DNA from: a bacterium
GTDB taxonomy: Bacteria > Patescibacteriota > Dojkabacteria > SC72
Assembly (NCBI GenBank): GCA_022840695.1
Contig: JALHDC010000001.1
Span: 84,456 to 148,455 of the forward strand
Length of the DNA stretch: 64,000 nt
Reading direction: 5' to 3'
Shown piece after piece: positions 13,695 through 41,556 of the stretch. The translations under genes were made by a program, and so were the position numbers. Within the stretch, counting starts at the first letter, position 1. Each line of letters begins with the position of its first letter. The notes under the pieces were generated by a model. The model saw only the letters and a list, made by a program, of their open reading frames with translations. It was not told where the DNA came from and searched no databases.

Positions 13695-13724
13695 TTGCCT
13701 AATTCCTAACCATTATGATACAAT
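13695..13724 (+). promoter_or_regulatory. Candidate promoter of groES-groEL (TTGCCT-N18-TACAAT)
   Basis: Hexamers seen directly. The -10 ends 3 nt before the CIRCE-like element. Confidence 0.4.
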
Positions 13725-13727
13725 TCT

Positions 13728-13754
13728 CTAGCAATCAATAAATTAATCTGCTAA
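13728..13754 (+). promoter_or_regulatory. CIRCE-like element upstream of groES (CTAGCA-N15-TGCTAA)
   Basis: CTAGCAATCaataaattaATCTGCTAA. Same 6-15-6 architecture as the hrcA site, 6 nt upstream of the groES ATG. Confidence 0.6.
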
Positions 13755-13760
13755 ATAGCT

Positions 13761-14060
13761 ATGTCAAAAAACATAAAAATACAACCATTAGGTAAAAGAG
13801 TTCTGATTAAACCTGATGAAGTAGAGGAAGTTACATCAGGAGGTTTGGTTCTTCCACCAAGTGCTAGCGAAGATAGAAAACCTGAAACAGGTGTGATTCT
13901 TAAACTTGGACAAGGTAAGGAGAAAGGAAAAGATATCTCTTTTGAAGTTGAAGTTGGAGACAGGGTGTATTTTAAAAAATATTCTGCTGATGAATTTGAA
14001 TTAGATAATGAAAAATATTTTCTCTTAGATACTGCCGATATACTTGCAATTATTAAATAA
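13761..14060 (+). CDS. groES: Co-chaperonin GroES
   Basis: IQPLGKRVLIKPDEVEEVTSGGLVLP matches the GroES signature. 99 aa. Confidence 0.95.
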   Translation: MSKNIKIQPLGKRVLIKPDEVEEVTSGGLVLPPSASEDRKPETGVILKLGQGKEKGKDISFEVEVGDRVYFKKYSADEFELDNEKYFLLDTADILAIIK

Positions 14061-14064
14061 TTAA

Positions 14065-15711
<1,647 letters not shown>

Positions 15712-17007: not shown

Positions 17008-18855
17008 ATGTATTTCTATTGCATGCTATTATATAAAATGGTCTTGGCAAAATTAAAACAGAAGATATCAACCCTAACAAAACTTCTTAAATTTATCTAT
17101 CTGAATTATACAGCTCCTGCGATACTAAGGGATATACTTTTTGTTTGTTCAACGGCTGCGGAAATATATGGAATTACAATATTGGGAAGATTCATAGATG
17201 AAACTACTCAAATATTATTGAATTGGAAGGATTTCGATCTAGAAAGATATTTTAGAACAGAGTCTTTTTTCTATCTCTCAATAATATTAATTCTTTGGTT
17301 AATTACAAAAATCTGTACTCAGCTTAGAGAGTTCCTCTACCATGTAATCTATGAGAACTCTTGGGAAGATGCCAGATACCTACTATTATCAAAAGTATCC
17401 TCTTCGAACTTGGAGGATGTTGAGAAAGAAGAGTATCAGGATATGCTAACATTCATACCAGCATTTTCTTTGGCAAGAATAATGGCAACATATGAGAACT
17501 TTACCTCAGTATTAAGCAATATTATTAGATCTATAACAGCTGGAATTATACTTTTTGGAACGATGGGATGGAGTGCAATAGTTCTTGTCCTACTCGTCCT
17601 TCCTGAAACAATAGCTACTCATAATCGAAGAAAAGATATTAGAAAATATCAGGATCAAGAGACTGGGAAATTAAAATTCTTAAACTATATTGATAACTTA
17701 GGTTTAACAATATCAAGCTTTACTGAACTAAGGGTAAATAATGTATATTCATATCTCAAAAGAAGGTATGTTGAGGAGTACGATGAGTATCTTGCTGGCT
17801 ATTTAAAAACACAATTTAATTTCTCCCAAGACAGTATTCTTTTTTCAATAATTGGTCAGGTGCTTAAATTCACCTATGTTATATATGCACTCTTTAGATC
17901 CATATCAAAAAGACTCTCATTTGGTCAATTTAAAGCAATATACGACTATATTGATGTTGTATATTCTTCAACCTTTAATATACTAAATTCTCTTTCCTTG
18001 ATGTCTAATAACCTGGCATATTTAGATGAGTTCTTTAGCTTAATAGAGTATGAGGGATTTGGAGACTATTCTCATGGTGATATAAATCTTCCCAAAGGTA
18101 CACCTAAGATAGAAATGAAAAATCTATATTTTGAATATCCAGATGATCCAACAACTAAGGTTTTGGAAAATATCAATATTGAAATTAAACCTGGAGAAAA
18201 AATTGCATTCTTTGGTGGGGATGGCTCAGGAAAGAGTACGATGGTTAAGATATTAACAGGACTATATCGTGTAAACAAGGGAGAATATTTAATTGATGGT
18301 TGTAATATAAAAGATTTAGATAGAGGTGTATTAAAAAAGAAATTTGCAGTAACTTTTCAGGATTTCATAAACTACAATTTTAGTCTTAAAGAAAATGTTG
18401 TCATATCTGGACAAAGAAAAAGTGTGGATATGAAACTGTATGATAAAGTGGTGAAGATATCAAAGGTTAAAGATTTTCAAAAGAGTGATAAGGTAGATGA
18501 TGCTTCAATACTAGGAAAGATATTTCCATCTGGAAGAGATCTCTCTCCTGGATATTGGCAAAGATTAGCAATTGCAAGAATGTTGTATAGAAATAAGAAT
18601 ATATTTTTAATGGATGAACCTTTTACATATATTGATGATATGTCTGCAAGAAACATTCTTTCAGATATATTTGATTTCCTAGGTAAGAACAAATCATTAA
18701 TATATATTACTAGGAGTTTAAATAATTTAGATGTCTTTGACAGAATATACTATTTTGAAAAAGGAAAGATTATTGAAATGGGATCTTGGAAAGAATTAAT
18801 GAAAAGCAAGGGGAAATTGTATGAAGATGCTAAATCAGTAACACACCCCTCTTAA
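17008..18855 (+). CDS. ABC transporter, fused permease/ATP-binding protein (exporter type)
   Basis: N-terminal TM domain. Walker A GGDGSGKST, signature-like LSPGYWQRLAIAR, Walker B FLMDEP. Confidence 0.75.
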   Translation: MYFYCMLLYKMVLAKLKQKISTLTKLLKFIYLNYTAPAILRDILFVCSTAAEIYGITILGRFIDETTQILLNWKDFDLERYFRTESFFYLSIILILWLITKICTQLREFLYHVIYENSWEDARYLLLSKVSSSNLEDVEKEEYQDMLTFIPAFSLARIMATYENFTSVLSNIIRSITAGIILFGTMGWSAIVLVLLVLPETIATHNRRKDIRKYQDQETGKLKFLNYIDNLGLTISSFTELRVNNVYSYLKRRYVEEYDEYLAGYLKTQFNFSQDSILFSIIGQVLKFTYVIYALFRSISKRLSFGQFKAIYDYIDVVYSSTFNILNSLSLMSNNLAYLDEFFSLIEYEGFGDYSHGDINLPKGTPKIEMKNLYFEYPDDPTTKVLENINIEIKPGEKIAFFGGDGSGKSTMVKILTGLYRVNKGEYLIDGCNIKDLDRGVLKKKFAVTFQDFINYNFSLKENVVISGQRKSVDMKLYDKVVKISKVKDFQKSDKVDDASILGKIFPSGRDLSPGYWQRLAIARMLYRNKNIFLMDEPFTYIDDMSARNILSDIFDFLGKNKSLIYITRSLNNLDVFDRIYYFEKGKIIEMGSWKELMKSKGKLYEDAKSVTHPS

Positions 18856-21285: not shown

Positions 21286-22881
21286 ATGAAGCTAAGCTTT
21301 AAGAAAGATTTACACATAGCTACAATTAGATCAGAGGAGATTTGGAATAAATTCAAAGTACATACACTATTACAAAACTGTGAATCTAAACAGCCATCGA
21401 TAAATGCATACCTTGGAGCCAGATACAGTAGATCATCAGATTCCATCGTAGATATTGCTTCTGAAATACTCAAAACTAATACAGATGCTGCTGAAAGATT
21501 AGAAAAAATATTCTCTGGATATGGTCATAAATCTGTTGGAGATATGGCAGACCTATTCCTCTGCTTAGAAGATATTCCTATGTTCACTGCTATGAAAATC
21601 TTCTACATCAACTCCGTAATTTCTGGACAGGAAAGATCTACAAGATATCAAAATTTCCAAAATCCAGAATTTGTAAAAATACCAAATGAAGTATGTACAG
21701 ATAGGGAGATAACTAAGGGATATGAAAGAATAATATTAAAACAGATGCAAGATTACAGGGAACTTCTTAAACCAACAAAAGATGCATTAGAGAAACATTT
21801 TAGAATTAATGATGAAAGTACACAGGAAGTATCAGCTCTAAAGGCTAGAGCATTTGATGTAGCAAGATATTTGCTTCCCTTTGGTCTAAATACAAGTTCT
21901 GCATATCTAATGTCTGCAAGGAATTGGTCTGATATGATCAGCTATCTTTGTTCTAGTGATTCTGTAGTTGAGAATTCTCTCTCTACACTTCTTTTGAATC
22001 TTTTAGGAGAATCTAACCTAGAAGCAAGAGGATATATTAGGGAAGCAGATGGCCTAATTAGACATACAGATGCAAATGGTTGTAGAAAGAGTTCTACAAA
22101 AAACATATTGGAATATATGAAAAAGAGTATATCTACAGAACAGTCTAGAGATATTCCCGAATGTGAGGAAGAAGCAATTAAAGTATCATACTCTCCAGAC
22201 TGTATGGAAGCTCTCATTTCTCACTATGAAGCATTGATTAATCCTTTAGGTTCTAAAGAAGAATTTGAGTTTTCTGAAACAGATCAAGAAGAGATAGGGG
22301 AGATAATATTTGAAAATCATGATCATCATAATACATTAGGTAATATCGGGCAATCAGGAGCTGTAAAGATAGAAGGTTTTGCAACTCTAGGTACATTGAA
22401 GGATATGAACAGGCACAGAAGCTTAGAAAGATTTATGCCAATATTTCATGACGAAATTGATATGGATCAGGAATTAGATAGAAGAAATGATCAATGTTTC
22501 TATCTCTGTAACTATTTAAACATTCCATCTCTTTCAAGATTAAGAAAGAGCTATGAAGAAAAACTCACAGATACATATGAGAGAATTAGAGAATGGAGAA
22601 AGATGGCAAAAGAGGTTCTCTCTAAAGAAGTTTGTGATGAGTATACAAAATATCTTCTTCCACATGCTCATGCTACAAGATATATCTTTTACGGATCATT
22701 TGATGATCTGCAATATATTTCAAATTTAAGAACTAGAAACGGAGGACATATAGCATATCGGAAATTGACATATGAATGGTTAAGAAATCTCTCCTACCTT
22801 GATCCAATATGGAGACCATTATTGAGAAAAATCATAGAGCCTCGTATTGATGACAAGCATCAATTTGTAGATAGAAGTTAA
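21286..22881 (+). CDS. Putative flavin-dependent thymidylate synthase ThyX-like protein, tandem-domain form (531 aa)
   Basis: N-half GYGHKSVGDMADLF…SGQERSTRYQ resembles ThyX GHESxxEH…SxxExSxRY but lacks RHR. C-half carries NRHRSLERF. Sits within the folD-glyA-…-dcd context. Confidence 0.45.
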   Translation: MKLSFKKDLHIATIRSEEIWNKFKVHTLLQNCESKQPSINAYLGARYSRSSDSIVDIASEILKTNTDAAERLEKIFSGYGHKSVGDMADLFLCLEDIPMFTAMKIFYINSVISGQERSTRYQNFQNPEFVKIPNEVCTDREITKGYERIILKQMQDYRELLKPTKDALEKHFRINDESTQEVSALKARAFDVARYLLPFGLNTSSAYLMSARNWSDMISYLCSSDSVVENSLSTLLLNLLGESNLEARGYIREADGLIRHTDANGCRKSSTKNILEYMKKSISTEQSRDIPECEEEAIKVSYSPDCMEALISHYEALINPLGSKEEFEFSETDQEEIGEIIFENHDHHNTLGNIGQSGAVKIEGFATLGTLKDMNRHRSLERFMPIFHDEIDMDQELDRRNDQCFYLCNYLNIPSLSRLRKSYEEKLTDTYERIREWRKMAKEVLSKEVCDEYTKYLLPHAHATRYIFYGSFDDLQYISNLRTRNGGHIAYRKLTYEWLRNLSYLDPIWRPLLRKIIEPRIDDKHQFVDRS

Positions 22882-23469: not shown

Positions 23470-24636
23470 TTACATTGTAGGTGGTACAGGAGGCAAATCC
23501 TCATCTGTTGTTGTGTCTTGTACAGGTTGCTGTACAGGAGGAGTCTCTACGACAGGAGGTTGTGTAGCCATATTCTGTATTTCACTGTTTATTGTATTTT
23601 GTAAATCTGCAGCAGATGGTGTAGGTTGAGTTTCTGGCATTACTGTTTCAGGAGACGAAGAAGGCATTGGTTCTGCTAATGTTGGAGCACTTTGTGGTAC
23701 TTCCTGTTGTATTGATGGTGTCTCTTGTTGCATCAACTCCTGAAGATCTTTCTCCTCATTACCTGAACTCATTGGAGGTGTTGTTGGCATGACAGGAGGA
23801 GTAGGGATAGTTTCTACAGGTGTGGACTCCACTACTGGTGGTACAGAAGCAGGTTGTGCTTGCTCTACAGCTGGCGTTTCTGGGATCACACTCTCCTCAG
23901 TTTTATTCACCATATCTTTCAATGTAGGTTCCTGTTGGGGAGTACTGACTGGTGTTTCCTCTTGAACAGGTTCACTCATAGGTGTTTCAACTGTCTCATC
24001 AACAGAGGACTCTTTTTTCTTACTTAATAAAATTCCAATTATACTAATCAGTAATACAACGGATCCTGCTATCAAAATGTATGGTAAATACTCTGTTAGA
24101 TTATCTATACTAAAACCAGTACTCTGAGTTGTAGTTGTAACACTTTCCTGTGTACTTATAAGAGTAGGATCTTCTACTGTAGTAGTATCCTCTTCCTCTG
24201 TTACTGTCTCTTCAACTTCTCCTATATTTACAACTTCACCTAATTCCAATTCCCCTATATCCAAATCAGTATCATCCAAAACGGTAAAGGTATATGTACT
24301 TTCATCCGAAGTAAATAATATGTTTGCTAATACTCCACTTAATTCAGTAGCAGTATCCAATTCACAAGTTATAGTTACAGTATCTGTACTGTCAACATAG
24401 TCCAAAGAAGAACAAGTTATTGTTCCTGAATTAACCTCTGATATTGTTACTCCTTCTGAAAACTGTATAGGTAATACAATTTTCTCCAAAGTATCAGTCC
24501 CTGTATTTACAGTTATAGAAACAGACTGAATATCGGTAGTAGAGTTATCCTTTAAAGTTACATCTACAGCAGCAAATGCTTTTAAAGGGAAAAGGATTAA
24601 AGCAAAAACAAACAGAAAAGAATATATTTTTTTCAT
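23470..24636 (-). CDS. Surface protein: signal peptide, ectodomain, single TM, long Pro/Thr/Glu/Gln-rich cytoplasmic tail
   Basis: MKKIYSFLFVFALILFPLKAFAA signal. TM YILIAGSVVLLISIIGILL preceded by QSTG. The C-terminal ~190 aa are low complexity. Confidence 0.6.
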   Translation of the reverse strand: MKKIYSFLFVFALILFPLKAFAAVDVTLKDNSTTDIQSVSITVNTGTDTLEKIVLPIQFSEGVTISEVNSGTITCSSLDYVDSTDTVTITCELDTATELSGVLANILFTSDESTYTFTVLDDTDLDIGELELGEVVNIGEVEETVTEEEDTTTVEDPTLISTQESVTTTTQSTGFSIDNLTEYLPYILIAGSVVLLISIIGILLSKKKESSVDETVETPMSEPVQEETPVSTPQQEPTLKDMVNKTEESVIPETPAVEQAQPASVPPVVESTPVETIPTPPVMPTTPPMSSGNEEKDLQELMQQETPSIQQEVPQSAPTLAEPMPSSSPETVMPETQPTPSAADLQNTINSEIQNMATQPPVVETPPVQQPVQDTTTDEDLPPVPPTM

Positions 24637-24763: not shown

Positions 24764-25972
24764 ATGGATTATTCAAGTAATTACAATATGAATAGTAATA
24801 CTCCTGTATCTTCTTCGATGGATGAGAATATGGGAGAAGTTTTGGAACTTGAGAATAAACTAAACTCCTCTAAGGTTCCAGAAACTCTAAAAGAGGAAGC
24901 CATGAGAAGTGTGTTAAGGCTTAAGAGAATGTTTAGAATGGGCGGATATAGTGCTGAGTTTGAAACTGTGAGTAAGTATGTTGATTGGGTAACAAGAATT
25001 CCTTGGGGAATTAATTCTAAAGATAGTTTTGATCTCCAGAATGCGAAGCAATTAATGGATCAAACACACTACGGTATGGAGACAATTAAGGATCTAATCC
25101 TTGACTACTTAGCTACAATGCAACTTCAAACTAGGGGAGGAATTGAGAGTAGGGCACCTATTCCATCTCAAATTTACGGAACTAATCCCCCTATTCAGAA
25201 GATTGCTAATAATGAAATGGCTGTATTGAAAGGTTCTTCTGCGAATGCTCCTGTATTTCTTTTTATTGGTCTTCAAGGTGTTGGTAAAACCTCTATAGCT
25301 AAATCAATAGCAACATCTATGGGTAGAAAGTTTGCTAGAGTTTCTCTAGGAGCAATAGGTGATGTCCGAACACTTAGGGGTACTCCAAGGTATTCAATAG
25401 ATGCAGAACCAGGACAGATAGTTAAGTCTCTTGTAAGGTGTGGAACTATGAATCCTGTAATACTTTTAGATGAGATTGAAAAATCAAGTGGAAATGCTGG
25501 ATTATTAAATGATGTAATGGCTGCACTACTTGAGATATTAGATCCTGAGCAGAATTCTAGCTTCATAGATCACTATATTGATTATCCAATAGATCTTTCT
25601 GGAGTATTTTTCATTTGTACGGCTAATAATCTTGGTGGTCTTTCTGCTGCATTACTTGATCGTGTTGAGGTAATTAGATTTACAAGTTATTCCGATGAAG
25701 AGAAAGAGGTGATAGGTAAACAGTATATACTTCCAAAAGTATTAAATAATCTTAATCTCTCATCAGATCATATTAAGATAGAGGAAGAAGTATGGCCTTT
25801 AATAATTCGTCCAGTTGGATTTGATGCAGGTATCAGACAATTGGAAAGAAATATAACAACGATGGTTAGGAGTGCTGCTAGGATGATCATAGAGGAAAAA
25901 CAGTTACCAATAATCATAAATAAGGAAAATCTCAGCCAGTATGTTTTGGCAGATCAGGGACCTTTAAGTTAA
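24764..25972 (+). CDS. Lon-like AAA+ ATPase lacking N-terminal LAN domain and C-terminal S16 protease domain
   Basis: Lon coiled-coil/linker (LKEEAMRSVLRLKRMF…SKYVDWVTRIPWG). Lon-type AAA+ core (LFIGLQGVGKTSIAKSIATSMGRKFARVSLG…ILLDEIEKS…LEILDPEQNSSFIDHY). Protein ends about 60 aa after sensor 2. Confidence 0.75.
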   Translation: MDYSSNYNMNSNTPVSSSMDENMGEVLELENKLNSSKVPETLKEEAMRSVLRLKRMFRMGGYSAEFETVSKYVDWVTRIPWGINSKDSFDLQNAKQLMDQTHYGMETIKDLILDYLATMQLQTRGGIESRAPIPSQIYGTNPPIQKIANNEMAVLKGSSANAPVFLFIGLQGVGKTSIAKSIATSMGRKFARVSLGAIGDVRTLRGTPRYSIDAEPGQIVKSLVRCGTMNPVILLDEIEKSSGNAGLLNDVMAALLEILDPEQNSSFIDHYIDYPIDLSGVFFICTANNLGGLSAALLDRVEVIRFTSYSDEEKEVIGKQYILPKVLNNLNLSSDHIKIEEEVWPLIIRPVGFDAGIRQLERNITTMVRSAARMIIEEKQLPIIINKENLSQYVLADQGPLS

Positions 25973-26226
25973 TATCCTTTGAATGGGTTTGCTAATTTTA
26001 AAGCTGATACAGCTCTGTGTATTTGTGGATTTTTTATACCTTTTGCTATGTCTGCTTTATATGTACTTTTCTCTTCTGCCTTACTCAATTGATCCAGATC
26101 AGAGAGTAATTTATCTTGTGCTATCTTCTTAGTATCTACTGCCTGTGTAACCAAGTAGTTAGACAGATTTATTTGATTTTGACTACTGTCCTGTTCTTCC
26201 ATATTCATCCTCCGGATAACTTTCAA
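25969..26226 (-). CDS. Small hypothetical protein, last gene of the VirB4 operon (true start may be an internal Met)
   Basis: 85-aa helical ORF overlapping the VirB4 3' end by 44 nt. No recognisable domain. Confidence 0.3.
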   Translation of the reverse strand: MKVIRRMNMEEQDSSQNQINLSNYLVTQAVDTKKIAQDKLLSDLDQLSKAEEKSTYKADIAKGIKNPQIHRAVSALKLANPFKGY

Positions 26227-28639
26227 CTAAACCTTGGGGAGTTAAATGTTTTCTTCCCCTTTGTATATCCTCCCTTGACTTTACAGTTTGTCCTGAAATT
26301 GTACTTTCTTTTAATTCATCTAAGAATGTTTTTTGACTTTTATATTTCTCAGGATTTAATTCCATCTCTTGCTGTCTTAATCTCTCTTCTATTTCTTTCT
26401 GATACTGTTTTCTTTCTTCTTCCAACATTCCTTTATTTCCCTCTGTCCTACGAATAGCTTCTTGTATAATTTGTTCTTCTCTTTTGAGATTTCCTCCTCC
26501 CTTTAGTGGCTTCTGTTCTGCTGGAGGATCAAATATTTCTGATAGCTCTTCAATGGTTCTAGTCTCTGTTTGTCCCTCTCTCTTCTTAAGTTTTTCTAAA
26601 TCCCTTGGGTCTGAAGTGATCAATTCGTGTTCAGATACACTAGAAAGAACTTGTATACCAACATGGTTTGATCCAGCGAAGAATAGTCCTTGTCCTTTGT
26701 CACAGTTAAGGAGGAAATTCTTTTCCCCATCAGAAAGATTGAATACCTCCTGAAGTTTCTCTACAGCGGTAGGGCTTTGCATCATTAACATCTGCATAGA
26801 TGAGTTTGAAATAATGGCTTTTCCCATATCTGTATTTAAGAAATCGGCTACATCCTGGGTTATTGTTGAAAGTCCTAAATAATATTTTCTCGCTCTCTTA
26901 GCTATTGAATACATGAATCTAGCAGAATCTTCCGATTGCATCATGTACCAGGCTTCATCTACCACTAACAATCTTCTTTTTCTCTCCTTCCTTATCTTTG
27001 TCCAAATGAAATCAAGCATTAAGTACATAGCTAAAGGTTTTAGCTCTTCCTGTAGGTCTCTAATACTAAATACAGTGAATGGATTATTAATCTCAAAGTT
27101 ACTAGCTTCATTGAAAACTCCTGCACCACTTCCAATTATGTATTTTTCTAATCTCTTGGCTAAACCATGTGCTTCTGGTTCTGCCATACCTTTCAACACT
27201 TTGTACAGATCTTCTAGCATAGGGGGTGTTTTAGTTTGTGTATTTGGATCAAAGGTGATACCTTTTTCTCTGTATGTAAGTATTAAAGCTCTATCTAATA
27301 TGGAACCTTCAATATTATCTATTTCTCCAAATAGTACTCGGAAGAATCCTTGAAGAGAAAGCATTTTCATCCTTAATTCATCATCTCCTTCCTCTGTAAC
27401 TCCTGAAAGCTCAAAAGGATTCATTTTGTTTCCTTTATCCTGAGAGAATGAAATATATGCACCATTTACAGCTCTACAAAGATCTTCATATTCTCTTTCT
27501 GGATCAATTATTATTATTTCTGTGCCAAGCATCAAACTTCTAACAGCTTCTAGTTTTACAAAATAGCTCTTACCAGCACCAGATTTAGCAAATACTACTG
27601 TATTTGCATTTTCTAATTCGAATCTATCAAAGATAACTAAACTTTTGTTATGGAGGTTTAATCCATACATTATTCCATGGTCCATTGTTAACTCAGAAGT
27701 AACGAAAGGAAAGGTGGTTGCCAACGATGTAGTATCCATGTTTCTAGTTATATACAGGTTATCGAGACCTAGAGGTTGGGTACTGATGAATCCTTGTTCT
27801 TGTTGTAGTGTAGCTGGTTTCGCAGTCACATTAATAGCTGCAAGTGTAGATGTTACATTTCTTCCAATCTTTTCTAATAGCTCTTTATCTTTCGCATACA
27901 AGGTTATGTACATAGCAAAATGGAAAAACTTTTCGGTACCCTCTGCAATAGAATCTTGTAACTGTTGAGCATCTGATAGGGCAACCTTTAGTGAAGGATC
28001 TACTACCTTCCTATCTTCCATTTGAGCATACAAAGAAGCTTCCATTTCTCCTATCTTCTTTTTCAATTTCTCAAGTATAGTTTTAGAATCAACGGGATAG
28101 TAGAAGGTACTTATCCTCAAAGAGTGTTCGAAGTTGATAATAGGAGATAACCAATTTGGTCCTACAAACCTAGGATATCCGCTTACAAAAAGAGTTTTGA
28201 AATAATACTCTCCCATCTCTAAATGATTAAAATCCACCTCCAAATCTATTGGGGCTACTATATCCTGTATGGACATGTCCGTAGGGGATACTTTTACCTT
28301 CTCCAATACTTCTGCAGATATTGATTCTCCAACATTGTTATCTACTCCTGAATCAGTACTTTTCTCTTTCTCTCCTTTTCCAAACACTCCTGCAACATTA
28401 TCTAAGAATGTAAATAGAAAATTCTTCTTTTTCTTCTTCTCTACATCTTCTTTTGGTATTGGATCATTATATCTATTAAAATTCATTTTTTCAGAATTAT
28501 CTGTTGGTTCAACTTTAATTTCCTCCTTGAATTCATTATATTTTTCTCCAGGAGTCTTAAGTTTCTCTGCCTGTTCCTGTAACATCTGTGCTGTTTTATT
28601 CTCAAACGATCTATTGTAGTTATCATTAATATTTTCCAT
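26183..28639 (-). CDS. VirB4/TrbE/CagE-family type IV secretion ATPase (core + C-terminal part), with charged N- and C-terminal extensions
   Basis: IDLEVDFNHLEMGEYYFKTLFVSGYPRFV, Walker A AKSGAGKSYF, IIIDPEREY, Walker B LLVVDEAWYMM, STITQDVADF. Confidence 0.85.
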   Translation of the reverse strand: MENINDNYNRSFENKTAQMLQEQAEKLKTPGEKYNEFKEEIKVEPTDNSEKMNFNRYNDPIPKEDVEKKKKKNFLFTFLDNVAGVFGKGEKEKSTDSGVDNNVGESISAEVLEKVKVSPTDMSIQDIVAPIDLEVDFNHLEMGEYYFKTLFVSGYPRFVGPNWLSPIINFEHSLRISTFYYPVDSKTILEKLKKKIGEMEASLYAQMEDRKVVDPSLKVALSDAQQLQDSIAEGTEKFFHFAMYITLYAKDKELLEKIGRNVTSTLAAINVTAKPATLQQEQGFISTQPLGLDNLYITRNMDTTSLATTFPFVTSELTMDHGIMYGLNLHNKSLVIFDRFELENANTVVFAKSGAGKSYFVKLEAVRSLMLGTEIIIIDPEREYEDLCRAVNGAYISFSQDKGNKMNPFELSGVTEEGDDELRMKMLSLQGFFRVLFGEIDNIEGSILDRALILTYREKGITFDPNTQTKTPPMLEDLYKVLKGMAEPEAHGLAKRLEKYIIGSGAGVFNEASNFEINNPFTVFSIRDLQEELKPLAMYLMLDFIWTKIRKERKRRLLVVDEAWYMMQSEDSARFMYSIAKRARKYYLGLSTITQDVADFLNTDMGKAIISNSSMQMLMMQSPTAVEKLQEVFNLSDGEKNFLLNCDKGQGLFFAGSNHVGIQVLSSVSEHELITSDPRDLEKLKKREGQTETRTIEELSEIFDPPAEQKPLKGGGNLKREEQIIQEAIRRTEGNKGMLEEERKQYQKEIEERLRQQEMELNPEKYKSQKTFLDELKESTISGQTVKSREDIQRGRKHLTPQGLVESYPEDEYGRTGQ

Positions 28640-29274
28640 TACTCTTCCTCAGGGTTATATATAGTGTAGAATTCAGACAATAATTCCTTTGTAGTTAATT
28701 GGTGTCCAAAAAGACCCATTCTTCCTAACTGCTTAAGAAGATGATCTCTCTTTGGAAAAAGAAATATCTTAGCTTTCTCTATTAATTGATCTGTTTGCAT
28801 CTGTTTGTATTTCTCCTGTTCCTCCTTATTCTTTTTACTATCAAAGATACTACCTCCAGGTAATGGTACACCAGGGCTATACGGTATTACAAGAAAGAAA
28901 CTTTTATCTAATACATCATTTTCCACAATTAATTTTTGTACAAATTCGGTATATATATCTAACTGCTTCTTTAGTCCCTCACTCATCTGCTTATTCTTTT
29001 GTCCTTTTAGGTAGTCTATGTAGTTAGTGATATCGATTCTTCTAGTTCTGATTAATATCTGAATTCTAAAGTTCAAGGAATTTAGCAATCCTGCAAAAGC
29101 ATATATCTTATTATCTTGTTCATACTCAGCCAAGAGATCAAAGTTTATGGAAGATGTTTGAATAATCATTGCTACACTACCATTCTTAGTTATTAAGAGA
29201 TCATCTTTTATATCCCTTACCCCCAAATGTTCTTGTGTTGATGCTGTAGCTCTCGCTCTTGCGTTCTTTTCCAC
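28639..29274 (-). CDS. VirB4 N-terminal-domain-like protein, translationally coupled to downstream VirB4 ORF
   Basis: LLITKNGSVAMIIQTSSINFDLLAEYEQDNKIYAFAGLLNSLNFRIQILIRTRR follows the VirB4/TrbE N-terminal pattern. Its stop overlaps the next ATG (TAATG). Confidence 0.5.
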   Translation of the reverse strand: MEKNARARATASTQEHLGVRDIKDDLLITKNGSVAMIIQTSSINFDLLAEYEQDNKIYAFAGLLNSLNFRIQILIRTRRIDITNYIDYLKGQKNKQMSEGLKKQLDIYTEFVQKLIVENDVLDKSFFLVIPYSPGVPLPGGSIFDSKKNKEEQEKYKQMQTDQLIEKAKIFLFPKRDHLLKQLGRMGLFGHQLTTKELLSEFYTIYNPEEE

Positions 29275-29275
29275 A

Positions 29276-30106
29276 TTAAATATTATTAATTTTAATAGGT
29301 GACTTATTCTCTCTGTTACTTAACTCTAGTTGTACCTTTGGGAATTTATACACAGGATGTTGAAATTCTAACATATATGTTCCAATATCCCACATTTTGT
29401 TTGTAAGGAAGTACCCATTGGTACCAGTTCGATTAGCATACAGAACCTTTTGCTGAGAATCTTTTAAATATACAATTACATTAGGTATTGGTTTAAAATC
29501 CTTTGTACATAACCAAGCATTAATGTTTCCTGGGAGCCTATCTAAACTTTTAATATTGAATTGGTAGTTAGCAATATTACTATCTGTAATTACTAAAAGG
29601 TTTGGATCAATAGGGGGGGTAGTTAGGTTTTCTTCTACATTTAATTCTTCATCAAGCATATCTATGTCATCTTCTACCTCTGCATCCTCTTTTTTTATAT
29701 CTAATCCAACTCCTATGATCTTTTTATTTTTATCTTTAACATCCTTTGGTATTATCTGTCCATCTTCAGAAGGTTTAACTTCAGGCTTACTCCTTTCTTC
29801 TCTCATATCTTTATTCATCCATACTCTTTGTGTTGGATTACTAATAGCGGAGATGTAATTTTTTATGAATACATCTGCATCTTGATCATTAACTGGTACT
29901 AATCCTAAAAATATTCCTGCCCCCGAGGAAATGATGAATACAGGTATTCCTAAAATACCTGGAATTATATTACTCGCAGTTAAATATATCATTACTCCTC
30001 CAAAGCCTATACCGATGGCTAAATAGGCGAATTCTTTTAGAGTGAATTTAGTAAAGAGTTTAAACTCAACATCTAATATATTTTGTGGAATAGCATGTTG
30101 TCTCAT
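29276..30106 (-). CDS. Membrane protein with N-terminal two-helix hairpin (VirB3-like by topology/position) and C-terminal beta-rich ectodomain
   Basis: TM1 FAYLAIGIGFGGVMIYL and TM2 ILGIPVFIISSGAGIFLGLV. C-terminal carboxypeptidase-regulatory-like motif RTGTNGYFLT…GTYMLEF. Lies 1 nt upstream of the VirB4-N ORF. Confidence 0.4.
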   Translation of the reverse strand: MRQHAIPQNILDVEFKLFTKFTLKEFAYLAIGIGFGGVMIYLTASNIIPGILGIPVFIISSGAGIFLGLVPVNDQDADVFIKNYISAISNPTQRVWMNKDMREERSKPEVKPSEDGQIIPKDVKDKNKKIIGVGLDIKKEDAEVEDDIDMLDEELNVEENLTTPPIDPNLLVITDSNIANYQFNIKSLDRLPGNINAWLCTKDFKPIPNVIVYLKDSQQKVLYANRTGTNGYFLTNKMWDIGTYMLEFQHPVYKFPKVQLELSNRENKSPIKINNI

Positions 30107-30197
30107 ATATAGGCAGATTTTACTATTTTTCTTAGATAAAGTTTACCAGAATATTAAAGAAAGTTTTAGATGTATGATTATTGAGTTATAATTCACT

Positions 30198-30995
30198 ATG
30201 AAATACAGGCATGAAATATTCAAAAAACTACTAAAATTTCGTTCAAACATGAATCTATCTCTTTCTGAAAACGACATAAAATACATATGGGGAAAGAAAT
30301 TTCTAAAAGAAATTACTAAAGATTCAAAACTTCATATAAATAATAAATATGAAAATAATGAAGTAAATAGGAAAATCCAAATCTGTAAAAAACATATTAA
30401 TAAATTAAGAATATTTAATTGGGTCCAATTCATTGGAATATCAGGATCCGTAGCTGCAGGTTTTGCTAAAGAGGAAGATGACATTGATGTATTTGTAGTA
30501 GTGAGAGATGGAACCATATGGCTATACAGGGGATTAGTAGTTCTAAGAAATATATTCCATAACAGAATAAGAGCAAAAAGACATAAAAATGTAAAAGATA
30601 AACTATGTCTAAACTTCATATCAGAAGAAAGAGGTCTCAACTTTGAAAATGACATATTCAATTTCCACGAACTAATGTTCTTAATACCTGTATATAATGA
30701 AAAATATCTTAATTTCATATATTCACAAAATCCTTGGTTAGAAGAAGAGTATTATGTAAAAAAAGAAAACCTCCAATCCAAAATACTTCCAAAAAAAGAA
30801 ATAAACATAATTGTAAGAATATTTAACTATCTTGCCTTCGTATCTCAGATTATTTTTATGTCTATAGCAAGACACAGACCTGACATTAAAAATCTATCTG
30901 AAGACAACAAGAAGGGTAGGATACAATTCTTCGAAAAAGATTACAAAAAAGATATTCTCAAAAACTATTCAAAAGAATTTAAATCAATTAATTGA
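30198..30995 (+). CDS. Nucleotidyltransferase-fold protein (Pol-beta superfamily; KNTase/MNT-like)
   Basis: GISGSVAAGFAKEEDDIDVFVVV matches the G[S/G]…D.D nucleotidyltransferase signature, with a helical C-terminal domain. Divergent from the T4SS-like operon. Confidence 0.6.
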   Translation: MKYRHEIFKKLLKFRSNMNLSLSENDIKYIWGKKFLKEITKDSKLHINNKYENNEVNRKIQICKKHINKLRIFNWVQFIGISGSVAAGFAKEEDDIDVFVVVRDGTIWLYRGLVVLRNIFHNRIRAKRHKNVKDKLCLNFISEERGLNFENDIFNFHELMFLIPVYNEKYLNFIYSQNPWLEEEYYVKKENLQSKILPKKEINIIVRIFNYLAFVSQIIFMSIARHRPDIKNLSEDNKKGRIQFFEKDYKKDILKNYSKEFKSIN

Positions 30996-32008
30996 GCATT
31001 CTTTAGAACATTCTTTGGTAATTCTTTATAATTCACTATTGTTATAAATGTCTGTTGCTTCTTTAAAGACTCATCATTAAAGATTAATTCTGTATTCTTC
31101 TGATCTAACTCCGAAGAAATATCATCAAGAAGCAAAATAGGGTAGAAACCTAACTTCTTGGCTATGATTTCCTGCTTTTTAAATATTAATTGCCCAATTG
31201 CCAATCTCTTCTCTCCTCTAGAACCAAACTTCTTTATATCCATACCATTAATTAACTCCCAATCATCCCTATGTGGTCCTACATTTGTATAACCTGTTGC
31301 AATATCTCTCTTCTTTGAGGACTCCAAAGCATCCTCAAGTGCAATATCTTTATTAGATTTTACATAATTAACTTTTAAATGATCAAAACAAAGATCTTTA
31401 CATATATTTATTCTTCGCTCCTGAATATCCTTCGAAACAGACAAAAATTCATTTGTCCAGAAATTAAGTTGTGGATCATTTCTTGCAATAATTCCTCTCT
31501 CATAAAAATCTTTAGACAATTTTTTAAGATATGCATTTCTCTGCCTCAGAACTTTTCTAAATACCTTTAGTTTATTCGAAAACTCATAATCTATAATGAC
31601 TATAGCCTCATCTATAAACTGTCTACGATTACTAGGGGATATCATTAAAATTTCAATTTGTTCAGGATTGAATATAGTAGAAGCGGTTTTTTCAAAGAAT
31701 TTTCTAGGAGTAGTTTTATGATTATTTATCTGAAATACCCTTTTAGAGGCATTTTTGAAATATGAATATGTATCTTGATCTATTGTCATCTCTATTCTGG
31801 AAAACTTCTCCTCTCCATCTTGATTGTTTGAAATGTATTCATCTGAAGATGCCCATGGAGAAAACCCATTGGTTATTAAATATATCGCCTCTAATATACT
31901 ACTTTTTCCTTTTCCATTATCACCATGTAAAACAATAATATCTTTTTCGATATCTATCTCTATGTTCTTAAATCTTCTGAAATTTGTTAACTTTATCTTC
32001 TCTATCAT
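30965..32008 (-). CDS. recF: DNA replication and repair protein RecF
   Basis: IEKIKLTNFRRFKNIEIDI…LHGDNGKGKSSILEAIYLITNG (Walker A) and LLLDDISSELD (Walker B). Overlaps the lepA stop. Confidence 0.8.
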   Translation of the reverse strand: MIEKIKLTNFRRFKNIEIDIEKDIIVLHGDNGKGKSSILEAIYLITNGFSPWASSDEYISNNQDGEEKFSRIEMTIDQDTYSYFKNASKRVFQINNHKTTPRKFFEKTASTIFNPEQIEILMISPSNRRQFIDEAIVIIDYEFSNKLKVFRKVLRQRNAYLKKLSKDFYERGIIARNDPQLNFWTNEFLSVSKDIQERRINICKDLCFDHLKVNYVKSNKDIALEDALESSKKRDIATGYTNVGPHRDDWELINGMDIKKFGSRGEKRLAIGQLIFKKQEIIAKKLGFYPILLLDDISSELDQKNTELIFNDESLKKQQTFITIVNYKELPKNVLKNAQLIDLNSFE

Positions 32009-33948: not shown

Positions 33949-33981
33949 ACGTAAGGGTAACGTAAGGGTAATGCAAGGGTT
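33949..33981. repeat. Tandem direct repeat, 11-bp unit ACGTAAGGGTA x2 plus a degenerate third copy
   Basis: acgtaagggta acgtaagggta atgcaagggtt, read directly. Lies in the intergenic region upstream of lepA on the minus strand. Confidence 0.6.
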
Positions 33982-34543
33982 AGATATCTTGTATTTTAAT
34001 ATCCATATCGTATTCCTCCGAGAATTGTACTCCCGAGAGATTCTCAATTGCTAGGAATACGGTTAATTTCTCGAAAGGTTGTATAGTAATTTCTTGTGTA
34101 TATGTATTTCCCTTACTATCCTGGAGTCTATATGATTTTTCATTAACTAGAAGAAATATGTTCGATTTTGTATTACTTAATGTCTGTCCTAAAAATGTTA
34201 ATTTGATTTCTGCATCATTTTTATTTTCTAATTCTATTATTGGTTTAGAGTAGTTATCTGAGGCTCTTTTGTTTAAGATTGCGGAGTATGTGTAATGTTC
34301 TTCATCTATCTTAGAAAGGTTTTCACTTGTAAAGACTTCGTGCTTACCTCCTACCAACGTAACTTTTACTCCATCTTGAGTGGTAACTCCCAATACATCT
34401 AGTTTCTTTAGCTGTTTTGTTAGTGGAGTCAGATTCATTACAGTTATGATTGGGATAATGAATAGGAGTGCCAATACACCTAAAGCAAAAGGTTCTAATA
34501 TTTGTGTAAATACTGTTTTTAAATTTTCTCTATTATTGGGCAT
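33980..34543 (-). CDS. Hypothetical membrane-anchored (secreted-domain) protein
   Basis: N-terminal TM FALGVLALLFIIPIITVM. No recognisable domain. Confidence 0.5.
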   Translation of the reverse strand: MPNNRENLKTVFTQILEPFALGVLALLFIIPIITVMNLTPLTKQLKKLDVLGVTTQDGVKVTLVGGKHEVFTSENLSKIDEEHYTYSAILNKRASDNYSKPIIELENKNDAEIKLTFLGQTLSNTKSNIFLLVNEKSYRLQDSKGNTYTQEITIQPFEKLTVFLAIENLSGVQFSEEYDMDIKIQDI

Positions 34544-34548: not shown

Positions 34549-35097
34549 TTAATAATATCTGTTTTCCTTTGGATATATCTTATCAGTTTCTAATTCGAAT
34601 GTCTTCACTGTTCCCCATAGGCAGAAGAGTGATACAACTCCTGCAACTATGCCTGTCCATTGGTATGATATGTTTTGTAATGATTGGATAATTATTACTG
34701 CAGAGGAGATTATTAGGAAGGTACACCAGATAAATATTTGAAGAAATGTTGTGTCTTGTTTCGTTATCCATTTAAGTATATTTAGTTTTGTCATTTTCAC
34801 TACAGTTCTAGGATTTTGTAAGGAGGATTGATATATGGATGTCTTAATTATGAAATATATGGTTGGTAATGCTAGGATTATGAGCATTACAATATTTGAT
34901 ATGGAGTTAATGAATAGGGTAACATCGGGATTTGTAAAGAGTATTTGTATTGAAAACAATCCTTGTATATTGTTTTCAACAAAAAATTCCAAGTCATATA
35001 TAATACTTGGAATCATAATACCTAAGAACTTTCCAGCAATCATTAATATTGCTGGTGTTAACGATATTTTAAGAGCTCTTTTTAGCAGTTTTGACAT
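34549..35097 (-). CDS. Hypothetical polytopic membrane protein
   Basis: About 5 hydrophobic helices. The ORF-track start overlaps rpsT by 29 nt, so the true start may be internal. Confidence 0.45.
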   Translation of the reverse strand: MSKLLKRALKISLTPAILMIAGKFLGIMIPSIIYDLEFFVENNIQGLFSIQILFTNPDVTLFINSISNIVMLIILALPTIYFIIKTSIYQSSLQNPRTVVKMTKLNILKWITKQDTTFLQIFIWCTFLIISSAVIIIQSLQNISYQWTGIVAGVVSLFCLWGTVKTFELETDKIYPKENRYY

Positions 35098-36291: not shown

Positions 36292-38052
36292 CTATTTCTT
36301 CCTTATCTTCTTTAGTATTTTTGCTTCGAAGTATTTCTTTGGATTGAATATTTTCCATGAAGCTATCTCAACTTCTTTGTATAGACCAGATTCTACAAGT
36401 TTTTGAATGGCAATCTGTCCAAGTGGTCTTGAATATATATACCATCCAACTATTAAAGTAATTAATCCTGCGACAATCTTGCCTAATACTGAATCAAATA
36501 ATCCCGTACTTGGTGTAGTAGGAGTAGTTGGAGTTTCTGTATCTGGAAGGTCAGGGTCACTACAATCTTGAGCAACTTGTATAACATATTCAGCTCTAAG
36601 AGATGTTGGATCTGCAGGTATTTCTTTTGGTGTAATGATTACTTCATTTTGGTTTGATCCTGATAGGGCATTGGCTCCTGCTTGTGATTGGAAAATGATG
36701 GTTAGTGATTGTCCTGCACTTATATCCCAGCCACCTTCTTTTTGCCATACTATCTCTTTGGTATCTCCTACATCGGTAACTGTTACATATTCTGAATCTG
36801 TTACAGAAACACCGTTTATCTTGGATGAGTTTGTAACATATGTAAATCCAAGTGGTAATTTATCTTTTATAGATGTAATGCTTTGTTGTTGAGAACTACC
36901 GTTAGTAGCTGTTAATGTAAACTGAGCAACATTGTCAGGAGCTACTCTTTCTATACATGTGACATTGGATGTTTTACTTACTTTAAAATCAGATTCCTCT
37001 GTAGTTTGATTTTCCTCTTCTGATTCAGAATCTATTTTAGGTAAATTAAATGATCCTTCTACAGAACCAATTACTCCGGTACTGCCTCTAACTTCAGCTG
37101 TTATATCAATTGAACCTTCCAATCCGTCTAATTGTGAGAAACTTTTCTCCGTTCCAAAATTATCAGGATTGTATAAATCTTGTTCTAGTATGGTTATCTC
37201 TCCCTTAGATGAATCTACTGTAAATCCATCACTCATGAGAAGATCCGTAAGATTTTCACTAAAAGAGAACCTTATCGTTAATTCTTCATCATCCGATACA
37301 TTTCCAATACCTATTCGTATTCTTGATACCTTGTATACATCTGTATCTTTTCTTGTTAACACCTGTATTTCACTAAGTGTAGATGTCCCACCTTGCTCTA
37401 TTTCAATAAGTCTTCTACACAAAGGAGAATTGATCTGTTCTCCATTACTGTCTATACCAGTAGCTACAATGCTAATAGTAGAGCCAGTTAATTCAGTTAT
37501 CTCTTTTTTAATAGTTAATTTGTCTGGAGATATTACATCAGGATCAGCATCTTGGTTGTTAATTACAAATTTATGATTGGTATATTCTTTCTCAAATTTT
37601 GCTTCCACAGTTAATTTGTCTGAAGAAGAAACTTTCCCTGTTACAATCTTTCCATTACCATCTTTTATTGTCATCTCTGCACATCTTTTATCCTGTACAG
37701 TTTGTAATTGACATATCTGAAATAGGTCTTGTTTAGTACTACTATTCAAAAGATTAACAGATAGATCACTGGTTGAGCATGATGCTCTACAAACCTGATC
37801 GCTTGATACTGTTGCAGTCTTAAAGAGGAATCCTCTTCTTGGATCTCCACATTCAGATATTACAGCGGGATCAATATAGTAACAGGCACAAGTAACTTGA
37901 GAAGTGGCATCTTCCTTACCAGTATCTCCTATGGCATAAAAATATATTGCTGTTGCGAGTAATCCTAAACCTAAGAGTCCTACAAATATGAGTAAGATTA
38001 TAGTTGTTCTTTTCGGTTTTCTAGTAGTAGTAACTCTTCGAACCTCTTCCAT
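36292..38052 (-). CDS. Surface protein (586 aa) with N-terminal TM anchor and C-terminal TPSTG + TM + tail
   Basis: N-terminal TM TIILLIFVGLLGLGLLATAIYFY. C-terminal …TETPTTPTTPSTGLFDSVLGKIVAGLITLIVGWYIY. Confidence 0.6.
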   Translation of the reverse strand: MEEVRRVTTTRKPKRTTIILLIFVGLLGLGLLATAIYFYAIGDTGKEDATSQVTCACYYIDPAVISECGDPRRGFLFKTATVSSDQVCRASCSTSDLSVNLLNSSTKQDLFQICQLQTVQDKRCAEMTIKDGNGKIVTGKVSSSDKLTVEAKFEKEYTNHKFVINNQDADPDVISPDKLTIKKEITELTGSTISIVATGIDSNGEQINSPLCRRLIEIEQGGTSTLSEIQVLTRKDTDVYKVSRIRIGIGNVSDDEELTIRFSFSENLTDLLMSDGFTVDSSKGEITILEQDLYNPDNFGTEKSFSQLDGLEGSIDITAEVRGSTGVIGSVEGSFNLPKIDSESEEENQTTEESDFKVSKTSNVTCIERVAPDNVAQFTLTATNGSSQQQSITSIKDKLPLGFTYVTNSSKINGVSVTDSEYVTVTDVGDTKEIVWQKEGGWDISAGQSLTIIFQSQAGANALSGSNQNEVIITPKEIPADPTSLRAEYVIQVAQDCSDPDLPDTETPTTPTTPSTGLFDSVLGKIVAGLITLIVGWYIYSRPLGQIAIQKLVESGLYKEVEIASWKIFNPKKYFEAKILKKIRKK

Positions 38053-40545: not shown

Positions 40546-41556
40546 TTATCTAAGGTATTTATTTACATTACTATTATGTTCATCCAAAGTTCTTCCATAA
40601 TGTGGATTCCCATCAGTATCATGAATGTAATAGTAGTATGCGGACTCTACGGGTTCCCATACAGCTTTTATGGATTGAAGTCCTGGATTACATATTGGGG
40701 TAGGAGGTAATCCTATCTTTTTATATGTGTTGTAGGGATTATCATCATCTTTATCTTGAGCTGTTATAGTATGTTTCCAATCTTTTACAGGATATAGTAG
40801 GGTAGCATCGGTTTGTAAAAGCCATCCTTCGTTGAATCTTTTTATTATAATTCCTGCAATTGTTGGCCTATCATTTCCATTATATCCCTCTCTTTCTACT
40901 ATACTGGCTAAGATTATATCTTGATATGAATATTCATCTCCTACCTTTGTTTTAAAATTCTCCACTAAAATTTCTATTACTCCTCTACTATCTATTTCTC
41001 TAGGGAATGCATATCTATCTGGAAAAAGAAAACCCTCAAGATCTGAGACATTTACAGCAAGCCCTAGGCTTTCTATGAATGTCGTATCCGTTGTTAAAGA
41101 AAGAAATTCAGATATACTGAAATTTGATGGAGTATATTTACCAAGTTCATTACCCACTATCTGTGCAATTTCATCCTTCCTCAATCCTTCCGGTATTAAA
41201 ATCCAAACATCTTGGCTCCTTCCTGATTGTAATGCATCTATGAGTTCTTTTAGTGAGAGATTCTTCGGTAATTCATATACTCCTGCCTGTAACCTAGTTC
41301 CTAAATCATTTATTCTTAAATAGAATTTGGCATAGTATACAAATCTCTCTTTCAAAAGATCACTCTCTACAAGTGAATCAAGAATATTTTGTACTGTTTC
41401 TCCCTCTTTAATTTCTATTATGCTTTTTTCCTCAGAATCTGAATTAGGATTGGAAAGTGCTCTGTCATAGTCTAGTTTAATCACACCTAGAAAAACGAAG
41501 AGTATGAGAACTAACATAATTGGGACTTTAGAGAACAAATTATTACCTTTATTCAT
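40546..41556 (-). CDS. mltG: Endolytic murein transglycosylase MltG (YceG family)
   Basis: N-terminal TM. YceG motifs (IEIKEGETVQNILDSL…RLQAGVYELPKNLSLKELIDALQSG). Confidence 0.85.
   Translation of the reverse strand: MNKGNNLFSKVPIMLVLILFVFLGVIKLDYDRALSNPNSDSEEKSIIEIKEGETVQNILDSLVESDLLKERFVYYAKFYLRINDLGTRLQAGVYELPKNLSLKELIDALQSGRSQDVWILIPEGLRKDEIAQIVGNELGKYTPSNFSISEFLSLTTDTTFIESLGLAVNVSDLEGFLFPDRYAFPREIDSRGVIEILVENFKTKVGDEYSYQDIILASIVEREGYNGNDRPTIAGIIIKRFNEGWLLQTDATLLYPVKDWKHTITAQDKDDDNPYNTYKKIGLPPTPICNPGLQSIKAVWEPVESAYYYYIHDTDGNPHYGRTLDEHNSNVNKYLR

Follow-up and report, generated by a model that had tools for sequence, protein, structure and literature searches.

A PrgI/TrsD/VirB4-type gene module on a Dojkabacteria chromosome as the probable ATPase core of a type IV secretion system

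Type IV secretion systems (T4SSs) of the Patescibacteria were surveyed in 3,035 genomes, 2,417 of which encode the ATPase VirB4, and the Patescibacteria clade is nested in the monoderm MPF-FATA systems (Quinonero-Coronel et al. 2025, PMC12102498). TrsD is the most abundant partner in these systems, usually adjoining virB4, and PrgI/VirB3 is mostly adjacent as well (PMC12102498). The systems are chromosomal, relaxases are rare, VirB6 and VirB2-like pilins are frequent in a class-dependent manner, and VirD4-like genes lie distant from virB4 in most genomes (PMC12102498). The preprint version of the survey lists Dojkabacteria as one of the groups that bear a T4SS. The module described here consists of four genes on the minus strand of a Dojkabacteria contig (GenBank assembly GCA_022840695.1, contig JALHDC010000001.1). 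It was analyzed within a stretch of 64,000 nucleotides (positions 84,456–148,455 of the contig), which is termed the window and to which all coordinates refer. Judging from its gene content, the module very probably represents the PrgI/TrsD/VirB4 cytoplasmic-membrane ATPase core of a Patescibacteria-type T4SS on the Dojkabacteria chromosome. Such a core has been known for Patescibacteria since 2025 and is no new kind of system; the reduction of the cluster to four genes seems particular to the class Dojkabacteria, and no earlier description of it was found.

In Southlakia epibionticum, the homologous cluster SEML1_0006–0019 is essential for epibiotic growth, as established by transposon sequencing (Tn-seq), and lacks a recognizable coupling protein or relaxase (Wang et al. 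2023, PMC10633639). Effector delivery or the uptake of host material has been suggested in reviews as the task of Patescibacteria T4SSs (PMC11665869, PMC12857230), and, according to a 2026 preprint, a cultivated Patescibacterium takes up host RNA and forms tubular structures that may be T4SS pili. The Patescibacteria T4SS is among the few machines that were shown to be essential for host-dependent growth.

Four genes around a split VirB4 ATPase

The module starts with a PrgI/VirB3-like membrane protein of 276 residues (29276–30106, minus strand), which is followed on the same strand by a TrsD-like, free-standing homolog of the VirB4 N-domain (211 residues, 28639–29274), a VirB4-type ATPase without the canonical N-domain (818 residues, 26183–28639), and a small hydrophilic protein (85 residues from the first possible start, 25969–26226). 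An earlier reading of the window that was made without database searches (the sequence-only reading) had described four minus-strand open reading frames (ORFs) with gaps of at most 1 nt or overlaps, and had taken them for a T4SS-type module of a VirB3-like protein, an N-terminal and a C-terminal VirB4 part, and a small ORF. Coordinates and junctions are borne out in the DNA, and the assignment agrees with the PrgI, TrsD/TraD, and CD1110 family matches detailed below. The TAA stop codon of PrgI is separated by one base from the GTG start of TrsD. At the next junction, GAGGAAGAG precedes a TAATG in which the stop codon of TrsD and the start codon of VirB4 share a single base. When read from its first possible start, the small ORF shares 44 nt with the 3′ end of virB4, and when read from ATG 26199 it shares 17 nt. 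The latter is the more likely start (76 residues), because a Shine–Dalgarno-like GGAGG is found 6 nt upstream of it. From this arrangement the four genes appear to be translationally coupled, and the 1-nt gap and 1-nt overlap suggest a coupled, stoichiometric synthesis. A scan for promoter and terminator consensus sequences between 25700 and 30400 gave counts no better than chance, and no operon was inferred from it.

The 818-residue protein matches the NCBIfam family conju_CD1110 (NF045971) with E = 5e-118 and 395.4 bits at a cutoff of 325 bits, whereby residues 117–662 align with model positions 180–734. The lack of a VirB4 profile match, which the sequence-only reading had named as a finding that would speak against it, is thus not what was found. 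Further Pfam matches are P-loop_TraG, AAA_10, and CagE_TrbE_VirB. The ATPase domain matches the VirB4 C-domain in the PDB (4ag5, 1.4e-50) and TrwK (E = 3e-4), and hhalign places residues 114–660 on 218–773 of the 804 residues of a Brevibacillus plasmid VirB4. The protein is built from a charged and variable N-tail (residues 1–120), a conserved core (121–680), and a charged C-tail (681–818). Across 17 homologs the core is 81–96% identical, and both tails vary. The Walker A (AKSGAGKS, 351–358) and Walker B motifs (LLVVDE, 557–562) are intact and lie in invariant alignment columns.

The N-domain is not contiguous with the ATPase in this VirB4 but probably corresponds to the upstream 211-residue gene. 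Its product matches the NCBIfam TrsD/TraD model with E = 1.6e-8, although at 34.6 bits the match lies far under the cutoff of 200 bits. In VirB4 models it covers N-terminal positions (103–233 of 894 in VirB4_plasma and 19–163 of 792 in TIGR00929), and its precomputed Pfam family is the TraC-like PF26593. When its AlphaFold2 (AF2) model (pLDDT 72.8) was used for a fold search, the eight top PDB matches were all R388 TrwK/VirB4 chains (E = 3.8e-3, probability 0.97, at a low TM-score of about 0.35–0.40). A comparison of the TrsD alignment with the N-domain of one plasmid VirB4 by hhalign gave no signal, so that the N-domain assignment is based on the positions in the NCBIfam models and on the fold search; a PDB sequence search with TrsD returned no match. 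As the model positions they cover are complementary, TrsD and the 818-residue protein would together make up one canonical VirB4. The sequence-only reading had called them two VirB4 pieces. They are not the halves of a broken gene; the arrangement is a conserved one that is known from pGO1-type systems and most Patescibacteria (PMC12102498).

PrgI, the monoderm counterpart of VirB3, matches PF12666 with E = 1.7e-7 and 32.1 bits (Pfam gathering score 27 bits) over residues 6–95, and no match was returned by a PDB sequence search. It contains exactly two membrane helices, which form a hairpin (hydrophobic segments at residues 26–44 and 51–69). In the AF2 model, helices span residues 8–44 and 50–69 at a pLDDT of ∼89 and are followed by a short helix. 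The N-tail and the segment behind the hairpin (residues 71–96) are conserved. A linker of about residues 100–165, which is first basic, then acidic, and disordered (AF2 pLDDT <50 for residues 127–164), leads to a C-terminal β-sandwich at residues 166–276 (29279–29611, minus strand), which is modeled with a pLDDT of ∼90. The sandwich takes on a transthyretin/carboxypeptidase-regulatory/CnaB-like fold. Foldseek against the PDB returned the transthyretin-like domain of carboxypeptidase D (3mn8, 9e-5) and CnaB2 (8bdw, 9.5e-5), followed by UafA, SdrD, and transthyretins, and weak Pfam matches at the C-terminus are EMC7_beta-sandw, CarboxypepD_reg, and SdrD_B. Within the C-terminal half, no stretch is better conserved than the sandwich, which is retained in all Dojkabacteria PrgI homologs (263–293 residues), compared to a plasmid comparator PrgI of 136 residues. 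With its linker and sandwich, the 276-residue protein departs from the small, single-domain build of the PrgI/VirB3 family. No earlier description of a transthyretin/CnaB-like domain on PrgI was found.

The transthyretin/CnaB-like fold is common on Gram-positive surfaces, and the sequence-only reading had assigned a β-rich ectodomain to the first protein. A two-helix hairpin, however, puts the sandwich on the same side as the N-terminus, which is most likely the cytoplasm. Both the N-tail and the region behind the hairpin are rich in lysine and arginine, whereas the loop between the helices is nearly devoid of them. VirB3 proteins bind the cytoplasmic VirB4. Because of the helix number, the charged flanks, and this binding, PrgI is predicted to adopt an N-in/C-in topology with its sandwich probably in the cytoplasm.

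Conservation and borders of the unit

For the comparison with relatives, one genome per species was scanned, which yielded 311 relatives, and the best 80 of the 311 loci were retrieved; identity and contiguity per locus were taken from a tblastn table with the window proteins as reference. The close homologs of PrgI, TrsD, and VirB4 all belong to Candidatus Dojkabacteria (candidate division WS6, Patescibacteria/CPR (candidate phyla radiation)), as do all VirB4 homologs above 60% identity. A synteny comparison had been proposed by the sequence-only reading, and in it the order PrgI–TrsD–VirB4–small ORF proves essentially invariant across the 80 species-level genomes. Of 85 loci, 82 have TrsD directly upstream of virB4 and 77 contain a match to PrgI. 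The three genes are contiguous and co-oriented in all but one of the 75 loci that hold all of them, the lone exception being a truncated alignment. The median identity to the window proteins is 73% for both TrsD (78 loci) and VirB4, next to 76% for LepA, 75% for GlyA, 70% for Dcd, 65% for S20, and 62% for RecF. The GC content of the module (0.339) resembles that of the window (0.334), and its GC3 is likewise similar to that of the housekeeping neighbors. The module appears to be vertically inherited and under strong purifying selection. An indispensable role of this compact core with its private fourth gene is argued from the fact that, across one class, it evolves as slowly as LepA and GlyA.

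These data bear on a further suggestion of the sequence-only reading, a conjugation remnant. On this view, an integrated conjugative element would be decaying at the locus, with virB4 broken in two and other genes lost. Such a history would fit the spread of VirB4 similarity over two ORFs and the absence of a relaxase, VirD4, VirB6, VirB8, and a hydrolase from the 64 kb. It is at odds with the two-ORF arrangement and its 1-nt junctions, which recur unchanged in 74 of the 75 species-level loci, with TrsD and a VirB4 core that are as conserved as LepA and GlyA, and with the intact Walker motifs, the synteny in 80 species-level genomes, and the neighbor-like composition. Neither an integrase, an insertion sequence (IS), nor a tRNA gene accompanies the module. 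Moreover, a separate TrsD is ancestral in pGO1-type systems and was found in 2,221 Patescibacteria assemblies (PMC12102498). Decay is effectively refuted as an explanation and carries a very small residual probability. By the same signs (no integrase, IS, or tRNA gene, no GC shift, and a distribution that is not patchy in the 80 loci), the module does not look like a mobile element of the integrative and conjugative element (ICE) or island type.

The fourth gene is conserved at the protein level. An ORF of 63–111 residues that carries the C-terminal motif and overlaps the virB4 stop codon is found in 79 of 80 loci. The C-terminus is invariant and reads [LI]x[LIM]xNPF[KRE]G plus one residue, and most copies also contain YLVT[QEK]xxD. 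The small protein has no family in Pfam, NCBIfam, or PADLOC. Since only 18 cluster representatives, all of 49–94 residues, were found among 1.84 billion proteins, it appears to be private to the Dojkabacteria lineage. No earlier description of a fourth gene with an NPF[KR]G tail was found.

Synteny alone cannot delimit the module, because the wider neighborhood is syntenic too. In nearly all genomes, rpsT, genes for two membrane proteins, lepA, recF, and a nucleotidyltransferase gene precede the module, and a Lon-like AAA gene, a surface-protein gene, dcd, thyX, and glyA follow it. The borders are instead drawn from the locus of a yak-rumen genome (L082), where the four genes lie together beside hrcA-grpE-dnaK and large surface proteins, and lepA, recF, the nucleotidyltransferase, and the Lon-like gene are all absent beside them. 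As this relocation carried the four genes without their usual neighbors, PrgI–TrsD–VirB4–small ORF is the functional unit. The Lon-like AAA gene and the nucleotidyltransferase were considered as further parts of the module and rejected, since neither of them is beside it in the yak-rumen genome.

The yak-rumen locus also bears on the notion that the ATPase is a HerA/FtsK-type enzyme of anti-phage defense instead of secretion. The ATPase matches PADLOC mad8 over its P-loop domain (1.2e-20), and weak PADLOC matches exist for the Lon-like protein and the nucleotidyltransferase. The match to CD1110 is better by ∼100 orders of magnitude and lies above a curated cutoff, however, and the PrgI and TrsD partners are T4SS-specific. 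The genes are universal, syntenic, slowly evolving core genes, unlike those of defense islands, and the two PADLOC-matching neighbors are unlinked in the yak-rumen genome. A defense function was rejected as barely credible, with the mad8 match reflecting only the generic P-loop and the neighbors matching weakly.

Insertions in two relatives, between recF and the nucleotidyltransferase (L025) and after the small ORF (L077), were checked for T4SS genes and carry EamA, an inositol-monophosphatase-like gene, a hydrolase, and an ABC transporter instead. In the deepest-branching loci (L072 and L077–L081, ∼12700–14600), an inserted ABC transporter of 614 residues (fused permease–ATPase) separates the small ORF from the Lon-like gene, and a paralogous ABC transporter is encoded in the window at 17008–18855. 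Many of the metagenome-assembled genome records among loci L006–L085 are titled “uncultured Candidatus Saccharibacteria bacterium” but share the Dojkabacteria/WS6 syntenic locus with 62–86% VirB4 identity. One record each titled Microgenomates and Nomurabacteria carries the same locus; the submitters' labels are probably wrong.

Partner genes, proposed role, and surroundings

Each non-nested ORF of at least 90 residues in the window was compared with Pfam or named via related loci. Among these ORFs, none belongs to the VirB6/TrbL, VirB8/TcpC, VirD4/TcpA, relaxase, integrase, or transposase families. A TrbC/VirB2 or T4SS-pilin family was not detected in the 64 kb either, though divergent versions could escape such a search. 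The window contains neither tRNA genes nor IS families, and no VirB4 relatives were found on IMG/VR viral contigs. At the sensitivity of Pfam and NCBIfam, the sequence-only reading was right in placing the module among housekeeping genes without partner genes, integrase, or IS. Its statement that no cell wall hydrolase is present holds for dedicated hydrolases; the sole wall-lytic protein of the window is a housekeeping YceG/MltG (40546–41556), 10 kb away. According to a hydrophobicity scan, only four window proteins are polytopic, namely MurJ, an ABC transporter, a 12-TM (transmembrane) TPR protein, and a 182-residue 4-TM protein.

In the proposed mechanism, PrgI would insert as a two-helix hairpin, with its N-tail and post-hairpin segment holding the ATPase at the membrane. 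In solved T4SS structures, VirB4 is held at the membrane by VirB3. TrsD would provide, in trans, the N-domain that the 818-residue ATPase is missing. The ATPase would then oligomerize and use ATP to build and drive an envelope-spanning conduit. The small protein may be a lineage-specific soluble partner, whose NPF[KR]G tail probably docks on the machine as adaptor, regulator, or substrate. By analogy with Saccharibacteria, the machine may serve a host-dependent (epibiotic) life through effector export or the uptake of host macromolecules rather than conjugation. Most likely, the module belongs to a dispersed standard T4SS with partners encoded elsewhere in the genome.

Several points weigh against this assignment. 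The TrsD profile score is far under its cutoff and the fold match to TrwK has a low TM-score, as given above. Neither the window nor the 10-kb flanks inspected in a few related loci yielded a gene for a VirB6-like channel protein, a pilin, a VirB8-like protein, or a dedicated hydrolase, so that a complete conduit is not demonstrated. The search for them used Pfam and NCBIfam hidden Markov models (HMMs), by which divergent Patescibacteria VirB6 and VirB2 are missed (PMC12102498). In addition, the function is extrapolated from one Saccharibacterium, whose T4SS role is “completely unknown” (PMC11665869).

As the alternative to a remnant, the sequence-only reading had offered a stripped-down envelope-spanning ATPase machine that is possibly used with the many surface proteins of the window. 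If the partners were truly absent, the module could be such a minimal machine, a VirB3–TrsD–VirB4 motor without VirB6 channel or pilus that may be coupled to another envelope system, with type IV pili and the sortase-anchored surface proteins as examples, or that may act as a membrane-bound assembly ATPase. No other T4SS family was found within 26–34 kb on each side, which extends beyond the 20-CDS (coding sequence) neighborhood of the Patescibacteria survey (PMC12102498). The joint relocation of the four genes, the extra domain of PrgI, the lineage-specific fourth gene, and the sortase and many surface proteins in the window would fit such a machine as well. The absence of partners is local and was established with generic HMMs, however, and T4SS genes may be dispersed, as in Rickettsia and several Patescibacteria classes (PMC12102498). 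The surface-protein neighbors, furthermore, are not kept in the yak-rumen locus. This makes a minimal machine distinctly improbable. Were it true, it would be the smallest natural T4SS-derived machine, with a VirB4 motor re-wired to another envelope conduit or task and with the PrgI domain and small protein replacing the missing parts.

A role in moving nucleic acid is also rather unlikely, be it relaxase-independent DNA/RNA uptake, like that of the archaeal Ced/Ted and Helicobacter ComB systems, or conjugation with a relaxase and coupling protein encoded elsewhere. VirB4 weakly matches the archaeal DNA-import ATPase CedB (2.2e-16), but its 59.6 bits are far under the cutoff of 700 bits and the match is much weaker than that to CD1110. 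The adjoining recF and a ComFC-like gene 15 kb away would suit DNA handling, yet the recF adjacency is lost in the yak-rumen genome. T4SSs have been proposed as a candidate route of nucleotide acquisition (PMC11665869), for which the 2026 preprint on host RNA uptake and possible T4SS pili speaks too, and the distant position of VirD4-like genes in most genomes (PMC12102498) is in line with such a role as well. A relaxase, coupling protein, or DNA-binding component is not encoded in the window itself. In S. epibionticum, competence is dispensable and the T4SS is essential, whereas the homolog of the type IV coupling protein (T4CP) is non-essential (PMC12102498, PMC12857230).

The housekeeping genes of the window include rpoC, rpsL, rpsG, hrcA-grpE-dnaK, murJ, groES/EL, folD, glyA, thyX, dcd, recF, lepA, rpsT, holA, alaS, nusA, infB, and pnp. 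It further encodes methyltransferases, a sortase, a LytR-family protein, YceG, and many Ig/fn3-type surface proteins. The flanks were described by the sequence-only reading as dcd and a Lon-like gene on one side and lepA-recF on the other. This applies, and two further genes are to be added: that of a 388-residue surface protein separates dcd from the Lon-like gene, and that of a nucleotidyltransferase separates PrgI from recF. The Lon-like gene (24764–25972, plus strand) is convergent with the small ORF, which overlaps it by 4 nt, and adjoins the module in 79 of 85 loci. Its product consists of an AAA+ module and lid only (TIGR00763 253–569 of 795) and has neither an N-domain nor a protease domain. 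The nucleotidyltransferase-fold protein (30198–30995, plus strand) is divergent from PrgI and shows weak matches to NTP_transf_2 and PADLOC PDC-S09. The 3′ end of its gene overlaps that of recF (30965–32008, minus strand) by 31 nt. It is kept in 60 of 85 loci and is missing from one sub-lineage and the yak-rumen locus.

Candidates for hidden T4SS components were rejected for want of a T4SS family match. They comprise the 182-residue 4-TM protein (34549–35097, minus strand) and a 187-residue single-TM protein (33980–34543, minus strand), neither of which accompanies the module in the yak-rumen genome, as well as a 196-residue protein (13094–13684) and the 12-TM TPR protein (8219–10528). The 182- and 187-residue proteins, the latter with a β-rich domain, are encoded between rpsT and lepA, are syntenic in most Dojkabacteria, and have no family match. 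The TPR protein (plus strand, 769 residues) combines ∼12 TM helices with C-terminal TPR repeats, and its membrane part has no Pfam match even at E = 5.

Among the surface-associated genes, a sortase gene and large fn3/Ig-type surface proteins are found at 47279–48076 (minus strand), 61317–63155 (plus strand), and 36292–38052 (minus strand). The C-termini of the fn3/Ig proteins resemble sorting signals, with TPKTG or TPSTG followed by a hydrophobic helix and a basic tail, which suggests sortase anchoring. Two other surface proteins (23470–24636 and 43813–45888, minus strand) are composed of an N-terminal signal/anchor, an ectodomain, a mid-protein TM helix, and a long Pro/Glu/Thr/Gln-rich C-tail. 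The former is a fast-evolving neighbor of the module with 30–52% identity and is often undetectable. The ThyX-like protein (21286–22881, plus strand) is unusually long with 531 residues, a length shared in related genomes. Thy1 matches it at two separate places, which gives it the look of a tandem or duplicated flavin-dependent thymidylate synthase. A KilA-N protein (60357–61238, minus strand) and, in a relative (L004, 21872–22412), a Bro-N protein are phage-type DNA-binding or antirepressor-like proteins amid housekeeping genes.

Comparison with described systems

The conjugative MPF-FATA prototypes (pCF10, pGO1, CTn2, and ICESaNEM316) possess a relaxase, T4CP, VirB6, VirB8/TcpC, and a VirB1-like hydrolase, none of which is found in the window. 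The nearest relatives outside the phylum are VirB4 proteins from Firmicutes and Actinobacteria plasmids, with 30–38% identity over the ATPase core, and they are encoded in complete conjugation loci. CD1110-family loci of plasmids and ICEs (CTn2 type, such as Brevibacillus borstelensis plasmid NZ_CP144923.1) contain the best-scoring VirB4 family and carry PrgI immediately upstream, as in the Dojkabacteria module. In contrast, the VirB4 of NZ_CP144923.1 is unsplit with 804 residues, its PrgI is the 136-residue comparator, and a relaxase, a VirD4 (CD1115 family), and an NlpC/P60 hydrolase are present.

The TrsC–TrsD–TrsE genes of pGO1/pSK41 (MPF-FATA) share the separate TrsD next to VirB4 and a VirB3-like protein and represent the sole classical subclass that is built in this way (PMC12102498). 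They differ in belonging to conjugation systems on plasmids, which also encode a relaxase, a coupling protein, the hydrolase TrsG, and further Trs proteins.

The R388 system is of the diderm type and includes VirB6, VirB8, VirB10, and an outer-membrane complex; its N-domain is covalently part of VirB4, and its sequence similarity to the Dojkabacteria proteins is marginal. Its TrwM/VirB3–TrwK/VirB4 pair (PDB 7O41 and 8RTB) provides a structural template for the membrane anchoring of the ATPase through a VirB3 hairpin and a VirB4 N-domain. The small and well-defined set of four proteins should be useful for structural and interaction work on the membrane assembly of a split VirB4.

The Saccharibacterial cluster is larger, with ∼14 genes that include VirB6, an array of VirB2-like pilins, and peptidoglycan hydrolases. 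The Dojkabacteria module has four genes, and those partners were undetected in the 64 kb; dnaA and dnaN, too, are not in the Dojkabacteria window. The closest likeness is to the Patescibacteria-clade T4SSs. The module shares with them a VirB4 of probable MPF-FATA ancestry, a separate TrsD-like protein and PrgI/VirB3 directly upstream of it, and a lineage-wide distribution. It likewise has a chromosomal position, is surrounded by housekeeping genes, and has neither a relaxase nor a coupling protein in its vicinity. It is set apart from them by the C-terminal β-sandwich of the Dojkabacteria PrgI and by its lineage-restricted fourth gene.

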